DNA from: Amoebophrya sp. A120
Taxonomy: Eukaryota > Protista > Dinoflagellata
Direction of reading: 5' to 3'
Assembly: GCA_905178155.1 (NCBI GenBank)
Contig: CAJINV010000027.1
Span: 339,125 to 347,832 of the forward strand
Length of the DNA: 8,708 bases
A program made the position numbers and the translations under genes. The notes under the pieces are model-generated. The model was not told the DNA's origin, ran no database searches, and was given only the letters and a program-made list of their open reading frames with translations. Of the stretch, positions 1 to 8,638 are shown piece after piece. Position 1 is the stretch's first letter. Every line of letters starts with the position of its first letter.

Positions 1-646
1 AACTCTTCGTCTTCGAACAAGTTTCAACTTCTACCTTCTTGGGTTAGCTCCGAAACACGTGGTCTGCGAGTAATGCAGCTTACAAGTAAGCGCAGCGGAG
101 GAGGTTCACGGGTTTGCGAGTATATCTTTGTTTGTCAGCAGCTACTGAATCTAAATGGCCCAAGATTATGCCAAAATCCTGTGAGGGTGAAATCAAGATA
201 GTAGACAACACATGGAAAGCCGTTTGATTCATGCATTTTTAGAGGTTTTCGCTTTCGGTATTGCACTCGCGACATCTCAATCGTAGACCTTTGCATTTAG
301 ATCTGTAGTAGCTTACTCGAGCGAAAGAAGTGATGAAATTCGTCAACGTATTGGTTTGCATTAACTCAATAGGTCAGGAAATTGATCAAATAGCACAGAC
401 CATTTCAAAGAAAGTTGAGCGAAAGCATTGAAATCGAACAGCCATTTAGATCAAAAAGGGACACTAAGTATTGAAATGAAGGAGCTCAATACTAAAAGGA
501 ACGCAGAGCCGTGAGAGTCTTAGTTTCCTGGATCAGTCGAGTAGATCAATACAATTCACGGAATTCGTGCCGACGTATTGGCTTAACGTAAATCAATACG
601 TCGCTGATCTGCATCATTTCTACGCTTAAGCGAACAAATTTACTCA
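1..646 (-). repeat. Candidate 3' LTR (distal end undefined)
   Basis: Non-coding and AT-richer than the ORFs, beginning with TG two bases after the putative PPT. There is no second copy in the window to confirm it. Confidence 0.4.
258..603. repeat. Four dispersed copies of the inverted motif GTATTG-N12/13-TCAAT(A)
   Basis: GTATTG starts at 258 (N13, TCAATC), 348 (N12, TCAATAG), 468 (N12, TCAATAC) and 575 (N12, TCAATAC). Confidence 0.75.
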
Positions 647-683
647 AATTCCCCCCAGCGTAGATGCATGCAGATCAAGCGAC
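600..683. other. Long imperfect hairpin
   Basis: gtcgc/gcgac (600-604/679-683), tgatctgcat/atgcagatca (605-614/668-677) and ctacgct/agcgtag (620-626/657-663). Confidence 0.75.
649..656 (-). promoter_or_regulatory. Putative polypurine tract (GGGGGGAA), followed by TT and a candidate LTR start TG at 646-645
   Basis: The minus strand reads CTGGGGGGAATTTGAGTAA about 90 nt after the pol stop. A G-run PPT, a 2-nt spacer and TG is the usual PPT/U3 layout, but the tract is short. Confidence 0.5.
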
Positions 684-736
684 TTCGTAAATAGAGTGGT
701 AGAAGAAAGGAAGAGAAGGCAGACAGTAGTAAACTC
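684..736 (-). repeat. Distal arm of the long-range inverted repeat, starting 12 nt after the pol stop
   Basis: Complementary in the mRNA to 4532-4580, about 41 bp in short helices including two G-U pairs. Confidence 0.8.
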
Positions 737-748
737 ATAATAGTAGCG

Positions 749-3700
749 CTAACCTTTTACATAGGTCATCTTTTTCATAAAATCGAGATAGTCATTTACT
801 GTCCCAGGACGACCATCATCATCGTACGCAGCGATCGCCTGCTTCGAACTAAACCAAGTGTTAATATCCCAAATCTTCCCGCTTCGCTTGCCATTCGTAA
901 ACATGTGGCCGGGATTACTGAAATCGTATAAGTGGACCTTCGTGTCCACTATTCGTTCCATCGAATCGGGATTCTTGATGGCCAGCTTCGTCGACCGTTC
1001 GCGATCCATCAGCAAATAACTACGCTGGTACACCTTGTGGATGTCGAACAGCTCACTTCGACAGTTCCCAGCCAGCGAGACCTTCGCCTTTCGATCCGTA
1101 TGTGGGAGCTGCACCATCACAATCTGCCCACGAGGTAGCGACTCCAAATTGCAGCCATGTGCTTGCGCGTTGAGTCGACTCCGGTAATCTGTCGTCGCTT
1201 TGCGCTGCTCCTGAACAATCAGCTGCCGCTCTTTCCTTCGACGAACAGCCTGATCAAATTGATCCAAAAGATCGTCGCCACCAATGCGCAGGGGCTCCTG
1301 CAGCAGCAACTCCGTCGGTGTGAGGTTATCCCGCGCGCCACAGGGCATGTTCCTGAGGTAGTACTGAAACCGTTGGACCTGCTTGTCCCATTCGATCGCT
1401 TTCCGAAACGTAAAGAACTTCCGCGAAAACGGATGGACCCTCTCTACCGCCTGCTGCGACTTAGGGTTATACGCTGTTCCCGGTGCGTACTTGGTGTTCG
1501 GGAACTCTTTAGCCAGCCAGACGCGGATCTTAGCATTTTCAGCAAAACCGAAACCGTTGTCAGCCCTCAGCACCTTCGGAGGACCAAACTCAAGGAAAAT
1601 ACGCCGACAGATTTTGATCACGGTATCGGTGTCCTTCATCTTCGTCGCTTCGCCCCAGATCCACATGGTCGCACTATCGACACAGGTGAACAGGTGCAAA
1701 TTGCCGGCGCGTGTAAGTTTGAACGGACCCTGGAAGTCGATGTCATAGATGTCTTTAAACTCGAGACCCGATTCGTTGACCCGCAACGCCGTTCGCTCCG
1801 GGGTCCCGTGGTACTCGGTACACTGGAAGCATTTTGCACAGTGCTGCGCGCAATCGTTCCAAATGGTTGGCCACCATACTCCCAAGCGGGTGAGGTGCGC
1901 CATCGTTCCAGCAGCCCGAGCATGCTCCGAGTCGTTGTGTGCGTGATCTAGAAAAAACCTTCTTGCAGTCACGCCAGCCGGGTGCTCGTCATTGATTTCC
2001 CAAATGCCCTTCGGGATGTACAAACTCCAAACCCCACCACTAAAGACCACGAGCGCGCCTTCGTCGTCGATGCAGTGCGGTCGTAGTAAGCATTCGAGGA
2101 CGATAGCTCTACGCTCAGCGGTCGGAATTTTGTTGCCCAGCTTCAAGATGATGTCAGCAGTTGCAAAGCCTTGCTTCAGCAGTTCTGCGGCACGCCGTAA
2201 CAGTGCACACTTTGGATCTCGCTCCTGTAGGCGAATAATCCGTAGGGACCAATCTTGACGCAGCTTCTCGTAAGCATTGACGGACCTCCGCTCGCTACGC
2301 GGAACCTTCGGATCGCCAAAAAACGCGAAGAAGTCTGCTCCTGCTACTGGCATAACGTCGCCAACTGCTCCAAACTCCCACGCCTGTCCAGCTACAAACT
2401 TATCCGAATAGCGAGCAACGTAGATATTCCGCCAGTCCGGGACGCGAACCCAGTCCGTACCTTCTTCAGGTTCTACTATTTGCGACTGCGAAGGCATTGC
2501 CCTATTCGCAAAAAATTTCTTGAAAATTGTAGCGGGGTCGCGGTTCAACTGGTCCGGAGTCAGTTCTTCAGCTAGTTCTTCGATAGCTACAGGCTGCTGC
2601 TCGTCTGCAGCCTCTTCTTCGCTCTCTTCCGCGCCTTCCTGCTGCTCTTCCGGATCCTCTTCTTCGTCGCTTGGCACGTACAGACTATCGTCGTCGTCGT
2701 CTGTGCTCGCATCTGCAAACTCGTCCGGAACAGAATCATCACCAGCCTCCAAACGAGCTTCTTCAACATTCCCCCCAGGCTGGTGTGATTCAGCTTCAAT
2801 ATTTCCGAAGCGAAAAGAGGAGTAGGTGGCAGGTGGTGAAAAGTCCGGCGCTTTTGGGTCAAACAGCCACGCCAGGATCTGACGAGCTGAAAATGGAAAC
2901 GGAAGCTCTTCTTTTGTAACTGTCGACGTCTTCACGGAAGGGTGCCGGGAGGCTGCGTCAGCTATGACGTTGATGATGCCACTGATGTACACCCGGTGGA
3001 TCGCACTACTGTCCAGCTTGTACTTGACTGCCTCGAGCCATCGCAGCACCTTGTCCTGCACGCGCTGATTGCCCACCAGGTCATCAAGTCGGCCAAGGTT
3101 TTCGTGGTCAAACATGAGGAAGCTCTCGAGGCCTTCAACATACCGGAAGCCGTCCTCCACGAAGAGTTTCACGGCGGAAAGTTCCTGTTCCAACACTGAC
3201 CAAGCCTGCTCCGTCTCATTGAAGGAGACACCTTTTACGACGCAGGGGCGTAATGGGCCGCCGGACCGCTCTGCTTGGGCGATCGTGTAGCTCCTACCAA
3301 ATCGGCTTGCATCGCAGAGGATAACGACTGGCCGGCCGGTATTGCGCCAGTCTCGAGCAGCTTTAAAATCAATCGAGCGAAGCGGGACGTCTACAGCAAT
3401 ACTGTTCTTCAAAGCTTTGACTGCGTGCTGCGCCTCGTTGTCGTGCTGGTACTGGGTGAAGCTCTTCCCATGTTTCTTGGTGTAGGGCGCAAGGGGTCCT
3501 CGGTGCCGCTGGTAGTCTGGTATAAACTCACGGAGATAGTTCACAAACGCCAAAAAACTAACCAGGTCGTCCTTACTCTCCAGCTCGGGCCATTGCTTCA
3601 ACTGTTCAACTTTCCGCGGAGTAGGTTTTCTTCCTTGCTTACTAACTTGAAACCCAAGCACTTCGACCTCCCGTTTGCCGAATACTGACTTCTTCAGCGA

Positions 3701-4609
3701 GAGCGCAAAGCCTGTCGCGCGGCAGCGTTCGAAGAGTTTACGGGTTCGGACGAGGAAGTCGTCGAAGCTGGAGCCTTTGTACACCAGGTCGTCAATGAAG
3801 ACGCCGTCGCAAACGTCCTCAAAGACCGACGCTGTCTGTTTCTGAAAAAATGCAGGCGCAGGGGATGGCCCCAAGGGTAGCCGCGTAGGGTAGTAACACC
3901 CGTCGGGTCCGACAACGGCCAAAATCTGCTGCATCCGTGTACTCAGCTTCACCTGGTTGTAGCCCATTGCAAGATCACAGCACCCGAAAAACTCGCCCCC
4001 CTCCAGGTTGTTGAAGATCTGCAAGGCGTCCGGCATGCGGAAAGCGACGGGCTGCATGTTCTTGTTGTCCGCCCGATAATCCACGACGATCCGTTTCGTC
4101 AAGTGGCCACGGCGATCCGCCAAAAACATAGGCGAAACGTGCAACGGGGTCGGCATGGTGTTGTCCACCTTCACCAGCTTGCCCTCGCGAATCTGTTCCC
4201 GGACCAAAAAGTCCATCCGAATGCGATCCATAAACGAGAGCGGGTAGGGCGAGAAACATTTCCACTGCGTCTTCTCCTTCATTTCGAAATCAGCCTCGAT
4301 GGGGTCCCCGGTCTTCGTTTTCAGACGCGGAAATGGGCAGCCGAGGTCGTGTAAGACGTCTGCAAACTCGCCAATCAGCTGCAAGAACTCCTCCCGCTGT
4401 TCGTCTGTATCGAACCCAAGACCGTCTTTCCGATACCTCTCTAGTACGACCTGCTTCCATTCTTCACCAGTCGGGTCGTACTGCTTCACTAACTTCTTTT
4501 CTTTTTCTTCGATTTCTGCAAGCAATTCTTCGAGCTTATTACTACCGTCTTTTTTCTCTTCTTTCTTCTTGTATTTCGAATTTCCATAATAACAGGGTTG
4601 CCGAGCTAG
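749..4609 (-). CDS. pol: Pol (RT-RNase H-integrase), in frame with ORF1 and probably expressed by UGA readthrough; the ORF-track TTG start at 4525 is likely not a real start
   Basis: The frame is open from 4609 (CTA GCT CGG CAA CCC..., 28 codons before 4525) to TAG at 751-749. RT motifs: RIVVDYRADN, DLAMGYNQV, LPLGPSPAPAFFQ, FIDD. RNase H motifs: CDAS, EQELSAV, FDHENL, NVIADAASR. Integrase has HHCC and DDE. Confidence 0.93.
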   Translation of the reverse strand, partial: LARQPCYYGNSKYKKKEEKKDGSNKLEELLAEIEEKEKKLVKQYDPTGEEWKQVVLERYRKDGLGFDTDEQREEFLQLIGEFADVLHDLGCPFPRLKTKTGDPIEADFEMKEKTQWKCFSPYPLSFMDRIRMDFLVREQIREGKLVKVDNTMPTPLHVSPMFLADRRGHLTKRIVVDYRADNKNMQPVAFRMPDALQIFNNLEGGEFFGCCDLAMGYNQVKLSTRMQQILAVVGPDGCYYPTRLPLGPSPAPAFFQKQTASVFEDVCDGVFIDDLVYKGSSFDDFLVRTRKLFERCRATGFALSLKKSVFGKREVEVLGFQVSKQGRKPTPRKVEQLKQWPELESKDDLVSFLAFVNYLREFIPDYQRHRGPLAPYTKKHGKSFTQYQHDNEAQHAVKALKNSIAVDVPLRSIDFKAARDWRNTGRPVVILCDASRFGRSYTIAQAERSGGPLRPCVVKGVSFNETEQAWSVLEQELSAVKLFVEDGFRYVEGLESFLMFDHENLGRLDDLVGNQRVQDKVLRWLEAVKYKLDSSAIHRVYISGIINVIADAASRHPSVKTSTVTKEELPFPFSARQILAWLFDPKAPDFSPPATYSSFRFGNIEAESHQPGGNVEEARLEAGDDSVPDEFADASTDDDDDSLYVPSDEEEDPEEQQEGAEESEEEAADEQQPVAIEELAEELTPDQLNRDPATIFKKFFANRAMPSQSQIVEPEEGTDWVRVPDWRNIYVARYSDKFVAGQAWEFGAVGDVMPVAGADFFAFFGDPKVPRSERRSVNAYEKLRQDWSLRIIRLQERDPKCALLRRAAELLKQGFATADIILKLGNKIPTAERRAIVLECLLRPHCIDDEGALVVFSGGVWSLYIPKGIWEINDEHPAGVTARRFFLDHAHNDSEHARAAGTMAHLTRLGVWWPTIWNDCAQHCAKCFQCTEYHGTPERTALRVNESGLEFKDIYDIDFQGPFKLTRAGNLHLFTCVDSATMWIWGEATKMKDTDTVIKICRRIFLEFGPPKVLRADNGFGFAENAKIRVWLAKEFPNTKYAPGTAYNPKSQQAVERVHPFSRKFFTFRKAIEWDKQVQRFQYYLRNMPCGARDNLTPTELLLQEPLRIGGDDLLDQFDQAVRRRKERQLIVQEQRKATTDYRSRLNAQAHGCNLESLPRGQIVMVQLPHTDRKAKVSLAGNCRSELFDIHKVYQRSYLLMDRERSTKLAIKNPDSMERIVDTKVHLYDFSNPGHMFTNGKRSGKIWDINTWFSSKQAIAAYDDDGRPGTVNDYLDFMKKMTYVKG
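1280..1945 (-). other. Integrase zinc-binding (HHCC) and catalytic core
   Basis: HAHNDSEH...WWPTIWND...CAKCFQC, then DIDFQGPF (D 1738-1736), RADNG (D 1561-1559) and YNPKSQQAVER (E 1444-1442). Confidence 0.92.
2945..3330 (-). other. Ty3/Gypsy-type RNase H domain
   Basis: DAS (D at 3313-3311), WSVLEQELSAV, FDHENL, RW and NVIADAASR supply the four acidic catalytic positions. Confidence 0.9.
3600..4270 (-). other. Reverse transcriptase domain
   Basis: SPMFL, DYR, DL..GYNQ and P.G...APA.FQ motifs, with catalytic FIDD at 3799-3788. Boundaries are approximate. Confidence 0.95.
4532..4580 (-). repeat. Proximal arm of a long-range imperfect inverted repeat (partner 684-736)
   Basis: Minus strand TTCG-AAATA ca AGAAGAAAG-AAGAGAA aaa AGACGGTAGTAA taa GCTC aligns with plus strand 684-736 TTCGtAAATA gagtggt AGAAGAAAGgAAGAGAA ggc AGACAGTAGTAA ACTC. 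Confidence 0.8.
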
Positions 4610-4612
4610 TCA
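4606..4612 (-). promoter_or_regulatory. UGA-CUAG stop-codon readthrough signal
   Basis: The minus strand reads GCC TGA CTA GCT. It is the only stop in 2630 in-frame codons before the terminal TAG. UGA-CUA(G) is the known leaky context in Sindbis virus nsP3/nsP4 and in mammalian readthrough genes such as AQP4, MDH1 and LDHB. Confidence 0.8.
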
Positions 4613-7600
4613 GGCGACTGACTGCAGCAGGGACGCGTCGTTCGAGTCCTTGACCTCCTTCAGGAATGCCTCTGCATCCTGCTCATGCGGGATCGCTTTC
4701 AGAGCCTGTCTCATGTCGCGGTCACCTACCGACCCGACCCCGCCGTAAGAGCGAGCCAACGCCTCGCGATCGTCTTGCAAAACGACGCCCGCCTTCTTTG
4801 CTTTCTTCTTGATTAGCTCGGCCTCGCGTCGCTGCTTCCGGGGAACGAAGGCCAGGTCTGGAATCATATGCGCGAAGCTCCCAGACTCGGGCAGGAGCGA
4901 CTGCTTCGGTTCCAAGAAATCCAAATCAAAGGTCACCTGTTTGGGCTTCTTCTTCTGTGCGACGGGAGGGCTCGCAGGAGTATTGGTATAGCTTAAGTCA
5001 GTACTTTTGTCATTGGTTTCGCTAGCTGCTGCCTTCAGCGCGTTGTCCTCGTCTGCATGTAGCAGCTTCTCCTCCTTGTCAGGTTTGGGCTTGCCTGACG
5101 TATTGGGTTTAGGTAACTCAATACGTCCAGCCGCTTCGTTCTGGTCCGTTTCCAAGGCCTCCACTTGCAATGGCGGGAGCTTGGTCGTTTTCAGCTCGAT
5201 TACGTCCTCTAGCGCAATCGTACGCACGCGTTGATTCGGGTTGTAGAGGGAAATCGGCATGGTTTCCGGAAAGGAGTTGACGTGCAAAACTGCCGGGCCA
5301 GGGTAGAAGGTCAGCCCCTTAGTTTTCACCTGCTCAGAAACGTCAAGGACGTACGCACACTGTGGGTCGGTGACGAGCGGACGGACCACCTCCGCAACAT
5401 CCACTTCGATCTCCTCCCCCGACGGCACCACCAGCATAGTGCCCATCTTGACGTCTTCGCCCATCTTGATCAGCATCCCGTCAACTCCAAAGCTGTGCAG
5501 GTCCTTGGGCACGTTCCGGGCGACCAAATAGGTCGGGGCGCGTTCGAACCCCAGACCAAGCTGCATATACATGGCGTAGCCGCAGGCCATATCTTCGGAC
5601 AAGTCGGGAACCACCAGAAACTTCACGGCCTGGGACCACGACTTTCCGCCGTTGTTGACCCCCTCGATGGCAATCTGTAGCGTCAGGTACTTGGACTGGA
5701 TCCGGCGGGTGTGCTGCTTGCGGCCAAACGTGATAACGACGTCGGCAGTCTCCTCGTGCAGAGCTTTATCGCGATGGCGCTCATACATCTCTTGCGAGAT
5801 GACACTTTGCTGCTGTCGATTCACCAAGCAGCCCGAGTCCTTCTGGCAGCAGACACGGGCGAAGGCCTGACCGTCATGCATCAGGTTGACCATCACATAC
5901 GGACCATCCTCTCCGGTCTTCATTAAATTCATTTCCGCGCCCTGCTCTCCCTTCAGCTCATCAGCTGGGGCGTTGTTGGGTGATTTCGGCGCCTCGACGT
6001 CATTCCCAACACTGGCGACACTAAACTGATTGCATTCGGCGAAGAGCTGACCACTTTCGGTAACCCAGTAGCGGGCAATCATCGACTGCAAATCCTCCTG
6101 CAAATTGACACGCACAGCCGTCAAGCCCTCCGGCAGCTTGTACGTAAACCTTTCGGCAGCGATAATCTGGGTGAAGAACTCGTAGTCGTGCAGCCGCAAA
6201 TTAGAAGCTTTGGCCGAAACAAGCCTGCCTTTTCTCGGGGCATCACGTCCAGTGACATTCAAGACCTCCTTCTGGCACGGGGCGCTCACCTGCGTGAGAC
6301 GGCCACAAGCCTTTCCGTCTTCGCGAATCGCCCACGATGTCGGTGCACCTTTGCCGGCAGTGATCGTGATCCGCGGGAGATGGGCGTCGTCTTGTCCATC
6401 GCCTTCGACGGCTCCGCCCGGTGCTGCCACAGGTTTGACGTCTTCGCCGTTGTCTTCTGTCTCGTTGTCCATATTGCCGAGGGCACCGGCATCGAAGCCA
6501 CGAAGACCGCCAAACGTCGCCGGTAGCTTGACAAAGGGCACACGGGAGCACCGATCTAACGCATCCGCAAGCGGAATGTGCTCGCCGCGGGTCTTCAGTT
6601 GCGCCACCTCCTCGGTGTGCTTCCCGAATTCGGCGGAATTTATGAAGCGAGTCATCTTGGTGCTGCAGCCGCACACGCCCTTCTTGGTCCACACGCTGCA
6701 CTTACCAGCGTCCCGGCGTCGCCGGAATGCGCTGTTCGGTGCACTCGCCCAAAAGGTCGGACAGCATTCGGCGGCGTCGGGGATGCCAGGGCGTGGCGAC
6801 TCAGGGACTAAGTGAAACACGTCCTTCTTCTCGGCGTCGCTGCAAGTCGGGCACCGTTTGCTGACGAGCTTTTCGCCGTGGAGCAGCACTTGCGTCTGTT
6901 TCTGTTCGGCCATATAGTGCTCCTGTGCCCCATGAGCAACCGCTTCACATTCGTCCTGGTTACTCCCGAAGACCTGGCGGCGACCACCATCCGGGCGGAT
7001 GGGGTACGGCTGCCCCGCATTTCCGTAGGAGTTCTGCTGGTGGTTTGCCTCTAAATCTGGGTCGATTTCTTCCTCTCGTTGTCCGCCATAGCGGCCAGTC
7101 TTCTCAATTTTCGACATGAAGATCTCCTTCCCCTGCTTCTTGTTCGCTGCCGACCGAATCGGCTCGAGTACTTTCTGCAGGCTCAGATGGGCTTCGGGGA
7201 TGTCGTCGATCTTCGTCTCGACACGGCTGACGACCCACGGCGGCAGCCCGGAGTTGTATAGGACGTGGTTGTTCAGGTCAGACATTTCCTGATTGGTGTC
7301 GGCCTGTGTACCGAGCGACCAGTAAAAGTTCTTGAACTTCTTGCGCGCGCGCATCAATTCTTCGAATTCAGCCGTAAAGTTGGAAACGAAGGCAGCAAGC
7401 TGGGACGGCTGTCCTCCCTCGCATCTGACCGCTTCCAGGGACTTGCGCTGGAGGTCCAGTTCCTTCAGTGGTTCTAGGCCCACGACCGCCTTCATATCGT
7501 CGACCCAATCGCGAGCCGCCGCAGCATGCAGGTCGTCTGTGACAGTCGCTTTGTGGTCACCGATCATGCCGTTGAGGGAATCGCGGACACGTTTCCATGC

Positions 7601-8638
7601 TGTCAAGGCGGTTCCTGTAGCCAGCGTCTCGAGCTGTGCCCACGCAGTTCCTGGGCGGCGCTGTTTTACCCACGACTTGTAGGCCTTCAACTCCGAGAAG
7701 AGCTTTTCCGGGTCTTTCGCCGAAATCTCCAATGTAGCAGCAGCAGGCTTTGCGAAGCCGGCGTCTTGCTCTGCTCCACCACCGTCCGGGCGAGCTAACA
7801 GCTTGAGCAAGAGTTCTTCTCCCTTCGTTTCGCGATCCAGCGCACTGTTGTGGATGACAAAGGTCGCGCGGAACTGACCCTTCTCGGTCACTTTCAGGGT
7901 CACGGGGGTGCTGCTCCCGAGGCTCGCCTTCATTTTCTTCGCCAGCTTCTGTTTGAAGATTTCCGCTTCCAGGTGCTTCTTCATGTACATTTTCTCGGCA
8001 ACTACTTCGCCAGCAATGCCCTCGTCCGTGCATTTCAGATCCATGAAAACCATGCACGGAATCTTTAACAGCTTCTCTTTCACCTCCTTCAGTTTCTGAC
8101 CGTCCTGCTCGTCCTCGCTCAGGTCGTCGAGCACAGCAAGGTAAGAGTCGAAGGTGTTACGGAGCTGACCAGTCTCGAGACGAGTCTCGAGGACAACCTC
8201 GGGCAAAACTTCTTCTTCAACATCTTCCGCCTGACCGTCCAGGTCCTCGCTGCCCCAGTCGCCCTGAGCTTCCTGCTGTTGTTCCTCGTTGTGGAGGTTC
8301 TGGCGGACGGTTCTGGCGCGGGGACGCCGGGCTCCTTTCTGTTCGCCGTTCGGGTCGTGGAGGACTGCGGTCCCTTCCACGATCTGGGTCCAGTACTTCC
8401 TGTCCAAGTCCGCCTTGCTGACCGAGTTCCGCAGACTGATTTGCAAAAATTGGCCGAGTTTTTCTGCATAAGCGTGGCGCGGCACACTAATGAAGCGGGC
8501 CCCGTCTGCGTACTCCGCAGTAAAATAAAAACAACTGCCTCTATACCCTACGTAGGTAAACGAGCGACCGTCTTGATGATCATAACCTTCTCCGGGTTTT
8601 AGCGTCGGCCCGGCGGCGAAGACGTTCGTCGTTGCCAT
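4610..8638 (-). CDS. gag: Gag-protease polyprotein (ORF1, 1342 aa)
   Basis: ATG at 8638 is in a strong context (AAG ATG G) with an in-frame TAG upstream at 8689-8687. The ORF has a helical/charged central region, a Cys/His cluster at 6617-6853 and a protease-like DSG motif at 5839-5831. It ends at TGA 4612-4610. The Gag assignment is positional, since no canonical capsid motif was recognised. Confidence 0.8.
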   Translation of the reverse strand: MATTNVFAAGPTLKPGEGYDHQDGRSFTYVGYRGSCFYFTAEYADGARFISVPRHAYAEKLGQFLQISLRNSVSKADLDRKYWTQIVEGTAVLHDPNGEQKGARRPRARTVRQNLHNEEQQQEAQGDWGSEDLDGQAEDVEEEVLPEVVLETRLETGQLRNTFDSYLAVLDDLSEDEQDGQKLKEVKEKLLKIPCMVFMDLKCTDEGIAGEVVAEKMYMKKHLEAEIFKQKLAKKMKASLGSSTPVTLKVTEKGQFRATFVIHNSALDRETKGEELLLKLLARPDGGGAEQDAGFAKPAAATLEISAKDPEKLFSELKAYKSWVKQRRPGTAWAQLETLATGTALTAWKRVRDSLNGMIGDHKATVTDDLHAAAARDWVDDMKAVVGLEPLKELDLQRKSLEAVRCEGGQPSQLAAFVSNFTAEFEELMRARKKFKNFYWSLGTQADTNQEMSDLNNHVLYNSGLPPWVVSRVETKIDDIPEAHLSLQKVLEPIRSAANKKQGKEIFMSKIEKTGRYGGQREEEIDPDLEANHQQNSYGNAGQPYPIRPDGGRRQVFGSNQDECEAVAHGAQEHYMAEQKQTQVLLHGEKLVSKRCPTCSDAEKKDVFHLVPESPRPGIPDAAECCPTFWASAPNSAFRRRRDAGKCSVWTKKGVCGCSTKMTRFINSAEFGKHTEEVAQLKTRGEHIPLADALDRCSRVPFVKLPATFGGLRGFDAGALGNMDNETEDNGEDVKPVAAPGGAVEGDGQDDAHLPRITITAGKGAPTSWAIREDGKACGRLTQVSAPCQKEVLNVTGRDAPRKGRLVSAKASNLRLHDYEFFTQIIAAERFTYKLPEGLTAVRVNLQEDLQSMIARYWVTESGQLFAECNQFSVASVGNDVEAPKSPNNAPADELKGEQGAEMNLMKTGEDGPYVMVNLMHDGQAFARVCCQKDSGCLVNRQQQSVISQEMYERHRDKALHEETADVVITFGRKQHTRRIQSKYLTLQIAIEGVNNGGKSWSQAVKFLVVPDLSEDMACGYAMYMQLGLGFERAPTYLVARNVPKDLHSFGVDGMLIKMGEDVKMGTMLVVPSGEEIEVDVAEVVRPLVTDPQCAYVLDVSEQVKTKGLTFYPGPAVLHVNSFPETMPISLYNPNQRVRTIALEDVIELKTTKLPPLQVEALETDQNEAAGRIELPKPNTSGKPKPDKEEKLLHADEDNALKAAASETNDKSTDLSYTNTPASPPVAQKKKPKQVTFDLDFLEPKQSLLPESGSFAHMIPDLAFVPRKQRREAELIKKKAKKAGVVLQDDREALARSYGGVGSVGDRDMRQALKAIPHEQDAEAFLKEVKDSNDASLLQSVA
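5546..5905 (-). other. Retropepsin-like aspartic protease domain
   Basis: PYVMVNL...RVCCQKDSGC...SVIS, later followed by VKFLVVPDLSEDMACGYAMY. This matches the D-[ST]-G motif plus the C-terminal F-x-V-V...D-x-(ILG) pattern in divergent form. Confidence 0.7.

Follow-up and report, generated by a model that had tools for sequence, protein, structure and literature searches.

Pairing across kilobases at recoding sites is already established for plant RNA viruses. In the tombusvirids CIRV, TCV and TNV-D, a proximal readthrough element (PRTE) past a leaky stop codon pairs over ~3.5 kb with a distal readthrough element (DRTE) in the 3′ untranslated region (UTR), with the polymerase encoded in the intervening loop and a structure linked to replication next to the distal partner (PMC3234231, PMC5893793). 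Long duplexes that begin 28–42 nt past a stop codon and have their partner strand close to the 3′ end have been built artificially in the poly(A) foldback reporters of Eberle et al. 2008 (PMC2689704). In-frame UGA codons, in turn, have been described in the long terminal repeat (LTR) retrotransposons Tca2 of Candida (PMC2194720) and fission-yeast Tj1, Tosmo1–3 and Tcry1 (PMC10085805). Here we analyzed a stretch of 8,708 nt from Amoebophrya sp. A120 (contig CAJINV010000027.1, positions 339,125 to 347,832; the whole stretch is referred to as the window), the minus strand of which carries a Gypsy-type LTR retrotransposon with the order gag-protease, UGA CUAG, and reverse transcriptase (RT)-RNase H-integrase. 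Like these retrotransposons the element contains an in-frame UGA, and the UGA-CT context is common to it and to Tj1/Tosmo (PMC10085805). As in the tombusvirids, a site past the stop is predicted to pair with the 3′ UTR across the polymerase-coding region, here over ~3.8 kb. What sets the case apart is that kilobase-range pairing is predicted for a recoding site in another class of element, and with a different geometry. All features described below lie on the minus strand, and positions are those of the window.

Predicted duplex, chance expectation and natural variation

Two long frames in common phase are split by a single TGA at 4612–4610. Duplex folding predicted that 4580–4531, downstream of this codon, pairs with 737–684 through 43 pairs at p > 0.5, with the arms 3793 nt apart. 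The proximal arm (4531..4580) lies inside the codons for SKYKKKEEKKDGSNKL, and the distal arm (684..737) is situated in the 92-nt untranslated stretch from the pol stop to the polypurine tract. The helices listed in a first-pass annotation of this DNA were recovered, namely 4580–4572/684–693 (with one bulge), 4569–4553/701–718, 4550–4540/721–731 and 4536–4531/732–737. Pairing starts 29 nt past the UGA with the outer helix, as had been claimed, and 40 nt past it with the main helix; the onset close to the pol stop was also found, but at 11 nt instead of 12. The energy of the duplex was −44.3 kcal/mol with the letters of the window and −48.0 kcal/mol with those of the main public contig. Letters unlike the public contigs occur in the arms at 4553 (in all three covering runs) and at 730 (main contig); the contig letter adds a G-C pair at 4553 and one G-U at 730. 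Low-complexity purine sequence, about which the first-pass annotation had cautioned, makes up 18 of the 43 pairs.

The proximal arm (~50 nt) had a predicted mean unpaired value of 0.63, and opening the two arms would cost 6.9 and 9.1 kcal/mol. A possible inner extension of the duplex joins 4510..4516 to 779–785 in the last pol codons (pair probabilities of 0.84–0.99 in a two-fragment fold). The distal arm is directly followed by a long predicted hairpin (598..682) with the polypurine tract and the LTR start inside it; its energy of −43.5 kcal/mol (z = −7.4) was reached by 0 of 200 shuffles, and it persisted alongside the duplex in co-folding. The 60, 100 and 150 nt following the UGA yielded energies of −2.8, −11.2 and −19.8 compared with shuffle means of −6.0, −14.7 and −20.8, and thus no local stem was found there.

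No dinucleotide shuffle reached the energy of −44.3 kcal/mol, whether the shuffling was applied to both arms (0 of 2000), to the distal arm alone (0 of 2000) or to all 748 nt of the 3′ region (0 of 500). The duplex site was the best of 864 sense windows (runner-up, −27.2), and among the 218 inverted matches more than 300 nt apart in the window it ranked top with a score of 36. This score was attained in none of 100 synonymous shuffles when the non-coding parts were kept and in 2 of 100 when these parts were block-shuffled. This best long-range inverted match adjoins both stop codons, and its arms flank pol, as stated earlier. With the pyrimidine tract fixed and only its flanks shuffled, equally strong duplexes appeared in 3 of 5000 trials for the window letters and in 10 of 5000 for the main-contig letters. 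Net of local folding the pair ranked first of 537 (−22.3 vs −17.4 for the next), in a ranking of those of the 6000 best-seeded pairs that scored −41 or better; none of five fully shuffled elements came near the real net energy (best, −17.0). The duplex is above chance as a predicted sequence match and stands at a meaningful place, but it is not overwhelming as an energy.

Natural variation was available from a second subfamily in the same sample, which is ~12–15% diverged (68/553, 117/784 and 63/557 letters). Its distal region was covered by two runs of this sample, for which 19 of 24 substitutions were listed and those near the ends were hidden. The purine tract of this subfamily has slipped by five inserted letters, and positions 720–736 contain one change that keeps pairing. 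Among five substitutions at paired sites, all four transitions keep or improve the pair (p = 0.038) and the single transversion breaks it. The predicted duplex of the second subfamily retains −41.6 to −41.9 kcal/mol. Both subfamilies appear to share the proximal arm, because a contig with a depth of 55.3 covers 4553 and two contigs with depths of 26.5 and 28.6 branch off at 4661; other stretches are merged as well (2204–2256 and 8389), so that a shared proximal arm does not demonstrate special constraint. Two-sided changes were not seen. The kept duplex lends weak support to selection (p = 0.04–0.14).

The first-pass annotation had also argued that single-base differences within the helices favor pairing on the sense strand. 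The bias of the subfamily transitions toward kept pairs (4/4, p = 0.04) agrees with this argument. In tighter windows, moreover, the sense duplex was stronger than the antisense one (−44.3 vs −40.5; −48.0 vs −38.7 with main-contig letters); in wide windows, however, both strands yielded −44.9, which leaves the argument weaker than it had been put. Overall, the case for selection acting on the predicted duplex is suggestive only.

The in-frame UGA and the element

The stop and its leaky context, UGA CUAG (4606..4612), lie between the protease and the RT. Across the 2630 codons of both frames there is a single TGA vs 35 TGG. The UGA is kept in a contig of sequencing run X4 (4407–4660), of which the sole difference from the window is at 4553, and no variant is listed at the stop in run X1. 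Furthermore, the Amoebophrya AT5.2 protein g14850.t1 (relative P0062), which is 35% identical to ORF1, terminates at the same codon as ORF1. Since a relative at this level of identity ends there, the UGA is likely programmed, as had been proposed earlier, and UGA CUAG is a known leaky stop context (PMC10085805, PMC3542737). Another Amoebophrya strain is reported to read UGA contingently as stop or Trp (PMC6394959), a hint by analogy that position may matter in the genus. While the AT5 relative keeps the stop position, other members of the clade have a single open frame; a protease-RT stop kept across Amoebophrya strains is an unusual layout in itself.

Relatives of 2418–2913 aa run in one open frame straight across the protease-RT junction, and a Gag-protease-Pol fusion is the expected functional product because these single-frame relatives cross the same junction. 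Right after the UGA position these relatives have a motif, KYKK or SYKK/SYKH, and then a Glu/Leu-rich helix. The motif SKYKKKEEKKDGSNKL encoded at the proximal arm is kept in P0001, P0002, P0003, P0066, P0067, P0069 and P0218, and the first in-frame Met of the pol frame lies ~110 codons past the UGA. Several other readings of the codon were rejected. A private mutation or placeholder letter is ruled out by the X4 contig and run X1, which keep the UGA, and by P0062, which ends there. The counts of 35 TGG vs one TGA exclude a regular Trp codon; the element frames contain 0 TAA and no internal TAG vs 129 Gln codons. Production of Pol from its own start is ruled out as well, the conserved motif being located 8–25 codons past the UGA and far ahead of the first Met, which also weakens the idea of an internal promoter at the 5097–5127 palindrome described below. 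For selenocysteine insertion directed by a selenocysteine insertion sequence (SECIS), no SECIS family was among three Rfam matches (E ≤ 1), and the last 748 nt contained no motif match. The last ORF1 codons and the UGA are predicted to fold into a small hairpin (4607–4625), with the UGA on its 3′ side. Run X4, which derives from another sample and is only guessed to be RNA, contributed two element contigs beside or across the UGA (4069–4356 and 4407–4660).

ORF1 (4610..8638; 1342 aa) starts with an ATG at 8638, ends with the TGA, and comprises a Gag-like region and a retropepsin-like protease with a DSG motif near aa 932; the window starts 70 nt ahead of its ATG. The pol frame (749..4609; 1286 codons) encodes RT, RNase H and integrase and stops with TAG at 751–749. 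Pfam matches in pol were RVT_1 (3e-11) and RT_RNaseH (4e-9), both over the cut-off, and rve and Integrase_H2C2, slightly under it. Their order, RT-RNase H-integrase, is that of Gypsy elements. ORF1 had no Pfam match. Residues 900–1160 of ORF1 led to retroviral aspartic protease clusters at 0.95 (ESM Atlas, a language-model-based lead); the predicted structure of this region had a pLDDT of only 32, and a PDB sequence search returned nothing under E = 1. The protease-like region with its DSG motif in ORF1 and the RT in the second frame place the stop between protease and RT. A putative polypurine tract of six G and two A (649..656), assigned from its sequence and position, precedes the 3′ LTR (1..646), the far end of which is outside the window. 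The LTR boundary was set at ~647, where contigs continue into unrelated DNA. Judged by the domain order and by the polypurine tract followed by the LTR, the element is a Ty3/Gypsy LTR retrotransposon, in agreement with the type assigned in the earlier annotation.

A named Amoebophrya sp. A120 gene model, P0063, matches the RT-RNase H part at every aligned residue (358 of 358), with a 39-aa gap in the alignment; this syndinean parasite of dinoflagellates is therefore very probably the host. The 39 codons omitted (3665–3781) are located just past the RT catalytic motif and between short GGT repeats; the skip may represent either a non-canonical intron or an annotation artefact. Relatives also occur in A25 (72–74% RT identity) and in AT5, and a search for relatives’ DNA among viral, metagenome and prokaryote genome contigs returned 0 loci. 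A tRNA search found no tRNA. A long acidic linker (2580–2720) lies between RNase H and integrase. The strongest raw duplex of the element, at −67 kcal/mol, joins 6560–6610 to 6950–7000 within the Gag-like region, ~400 nt apart. Of 28 places where the main or all contigs are listed as differing from the window (among 40 of 780 rows), 25 have a T in the window, which looks like a consensus in which ambiguous letters were filled in.

Candidate roles of the duplex

Our favored reading, to which we assign a probability of roughly 35%, is that the arms are a selected foldback clamp that influences termination and the stability of the RNA. Such a natural foldback element would loop out the RT-integrase region with a ~40-bp clamp and tune termination, readthrough and RNA survival. 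In this mechanism the arms would pair in the RNA, looping out 3.8 kb that contain pol, and the 3′ end would be placed beside the UGA, which would then act as a near-normal stop. The majority of ribosomes would terminate at the UGA and release Gag-protease, and the CUAG context alone would supply a small leak through which a few ribosomes make the fusion bearing RT and integrase. With the clamp in place, the 3′ UTR would appear a few hundred bases long instead of >4 kb, which would favor clean termination and shield the RNA from decay. A ribosome reading through the stop would melt the clamp for a time, and Pol output would in this way be coupled to the state of the RNA. The predicted pairing would likely bring the RNA tail beside a leaky-type stop and help to set how often that stop is obeyed.

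We prefer the clamp because the +29/+40 spacing and the length of the duplex, without a local stem, match the foldback reporters, in which 26-nt duplexes starting 28 or 42 nt past the stop suppress decay (PMC2689704). By analogy, the same duplex geometry can favor termination over readthrough. The low cost of opening the arms and the first rank of the pair net of local folding are consistent with this role, and the hairpin at 598–682 would take away a further 85 nt of distance to the 3′ end. The stop position kept at 35% identity, the fusion expected from the single-frame relatives, the energy retained in the second subfamily with its four pairing-compatible transitions, and the reported contingent reading of UGA in another strain are also counted in its favor.

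Several observations weigh against the clamp. In the reporters the effect weakened with distance, and the 3′ arm was located 16 nt ahead of the poly(A) signal (PMC2689704). If palindromes in the LTR of the element are promoter sites, its poly(A) site would lie >300 nt past the distal arm; no AATAAA or ATTAAA occurs in the last 760 nt. Nonsense-mediated decay is described as inefficient in Plasmodium. A survey of this pathway, in its available portion, contained no dinoflagellate (PMC5709506). One pair of the outer helix is broken in the second subfamily, whose proximal arm is known only merged with that of the main subfamily. Random mutation of equal load retained the energy in 4–13% of 2000 trials, and the duplex core had 1 change in 17 positions vs 11–14 in 52 elsewhere (p = 0.06–0.14). 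Finally, the purine richness of the proximal arm is dictated by the protein, and the net energy was matched in two of the six peptide-preserving shuffles described below.

The palindromes in question, GTATTG-N13-CAATA(C/G), were found at 348–372, 468–492 and 575–599 in the LTR and at 5100–5124 in ORF1. They may be a host promoter site, because other contigs match the motif only and then continue into GC-rich flanks. The ORF1 copy is ~490 nt ahead of the UGA, and 572–602 and 5097–5127 share perfect 9-bp arms.

The alternative that survives best, although we consider it doubtful, is neutral: a pyrimidine-rich UTR would face a purine run coding for Lys and Glu, perhaps as a result of old inverted copying during reverse transcription, and the complementarity would be functionless. 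The share of the purine tract in the duplex (18/43 pairs) fits this explanation. Raw energy was ordinary, as 231 of 6000 seeded pairs were at least as strong. Two of six shuffles that preserved the peptide and left the UTR intact had best net energies (−22.2 and −21.9) similar to the real −22.3, and synonymous redraws of the proximal arm matched the duplex in 87 of 3000 cases (core helix, 21 of 3000). A comparison with shuffled controls, which had been put forward earlier as a check of the pairing energy, gave a divided outcome: no dinucleotide shuffle reached the energy, some synonymous redraws matched it, and the raw energy was unexceptional among the seeded pairs. At 2653, the Glu-rich linker reached a raw energy of −49.2 with the same UTR, at an opening cost of ~50 vs 16 kcal/mol; the purine-rich codons of this linker could likewise pair with the UTR pyrimidine tract, but they are locally folded. 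The element has further inverted repeats, and the conservation between the subfamilies was not significant. The neutral explanation is less suited to account for the non-repetitive flanks, which match too when the tract is held fixed, for the position of the window’s best inverted match adjoining both stop codons, and for the tendency of changes toward G-U on the sense strand.

The first-pass annotation had favored direct stimulation, in which the duplex raises readthrough on full-length RNA only and is melted by ribosomes entering pol. The span and the 3′-UTR partner resemble the tombusvirus PRTE-DRTE interaction, for which self-limiting melting across ~3.5 kb has been proposed (PMC3234231). 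In Candida Tca2, 300 nt around the UGA gave no readthrough, and a contribution of cis sequences farther away has been suggested (PMC2194720); UGA-CUA sites often require a 3′ structure (PMC3542737). Nevertheless, we regard this explanation as unlikely. Known stimulators begin ~8–12 nt past the stop, at the mRNA entry channel (PMC3542737, PMC13517186), whereas pairing here starts at +29 to +40 and no local stem-loop follows the UGA. PRTE and DRTE moreover comprise 6–7 nt in a bulge and a loop, not a 40-bp helix (PMC5893793). Together with the damage to the outer helix in the second subfamily, this spacing argues against stimulation in the manner of tombusvirids or alphaviruses.

A role in packaging or reverse transcription, with the duplex making the RNA more compact or displaying the hairpin of the polypurine tract independently of the stop, appears quite improbable. 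Long-range pairing helps Ty1 reverse transcription, and the distal arm directly adjoins the hairpin around the polypurine tract, but the proximal arm is located mid-genome, distant from the 5′ end and just past the UGA. Least credible of all is an introner-like function in which the arms guide the splicing-out of pol to leave a Gag-protease-only mRNA (cf. PMC7789003, PMC12130899). In its favor, ~30% of the non-canonical A120 introns carry inverted repeats of 8–20 nt, U1 was undetected (PMC7789003), and the distal arm is a pyrimidine tract followed by AG at 683–682. Against it, introns were sought only up to 1000 nt in that study (PMC7789003), the best helix of the duplex is at the inner end, the outermost helix is damaged in the second subfamily, and no joint between the arms was present in any run examined, among which none of confirmed RNA type covers the arms.

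Comparison with described systems

The element differs from the known long-range readthrough signals in several respects. In the PRTE-DRTE interaction a hairpin loop pairs over 6–7 nt with a bulge in a local stem-loop, whereas the element has ~43 predicted pairs and no local stem (PMC3234231, PMC5893793). Tombusvirids are uncapped RNA viruses that use UAG-G, in contrast to an LTR retrotransposon with UGA CUAG and a spacing of +29 to +40. In the viruses, the distal partner switches with the replication structure; in the element, the hairpin at 598–682 adjoins the distal arm and coexists with the duplex in the predicted fold. Type II signals, as in alphaviruses, are defined by UGA followed by CUA or CGG, and the element has the UGA and CUA in common with them (PMC3542737, PMC8310308). 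These signals contain a stem-loop ~8 nt past the stop, which the element does not. Because the local stem was tested for and none was found, we did not class the element as a PRTE-DRTE or type II stimulator. The inverted repeats of Amoebophrya introners are located at their very ends and accompanied by direct repeats of 3–5 nt, whereas the outer helix of the element is imperfect.

Among the LTR retrotransposons with an in-frame UGA, the stop of Tca2, Tj1, Tosmo1–3 and Tcry1 lies between Gag and a protease-containing Pol, whereas the A120 element has its stop between protease and RT. The available text of the sources on these elements mentions no long-range duplex (PMC2194720, PMC10085805). Our literature searches, which covered mainly openly available papers, likewise turned up no retroelement with a duplex between a post-stop site and the 3′ UTR, in line with the earlier remark that no description of this in Ty3/Gypsy elements was known. 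The mechanism by which Tca2 bypasses its stop is open (PMC2194720). Remote cis elements have been proposed for it and not found, and a defined pair of arms makes this question directly testable. If the foldback reading is true, the element would serve as a template with which unexplained cases, Tca2 among them, could be searched.

The closest match in geometry is to the foldback reporters, which were engineered and used in HeLa cells and in which the poly(A) signal immediately follows the 3′ arm (PMC2689704), whereas the element is natural and its stop is of a leaky type. If the sign of the effect is toward termination, the A120 element would show in nature a geometry that has so far been built artificially, and it would bear on the avoidance of decay by retroelements with multi-kilobase 3′ UTRs.

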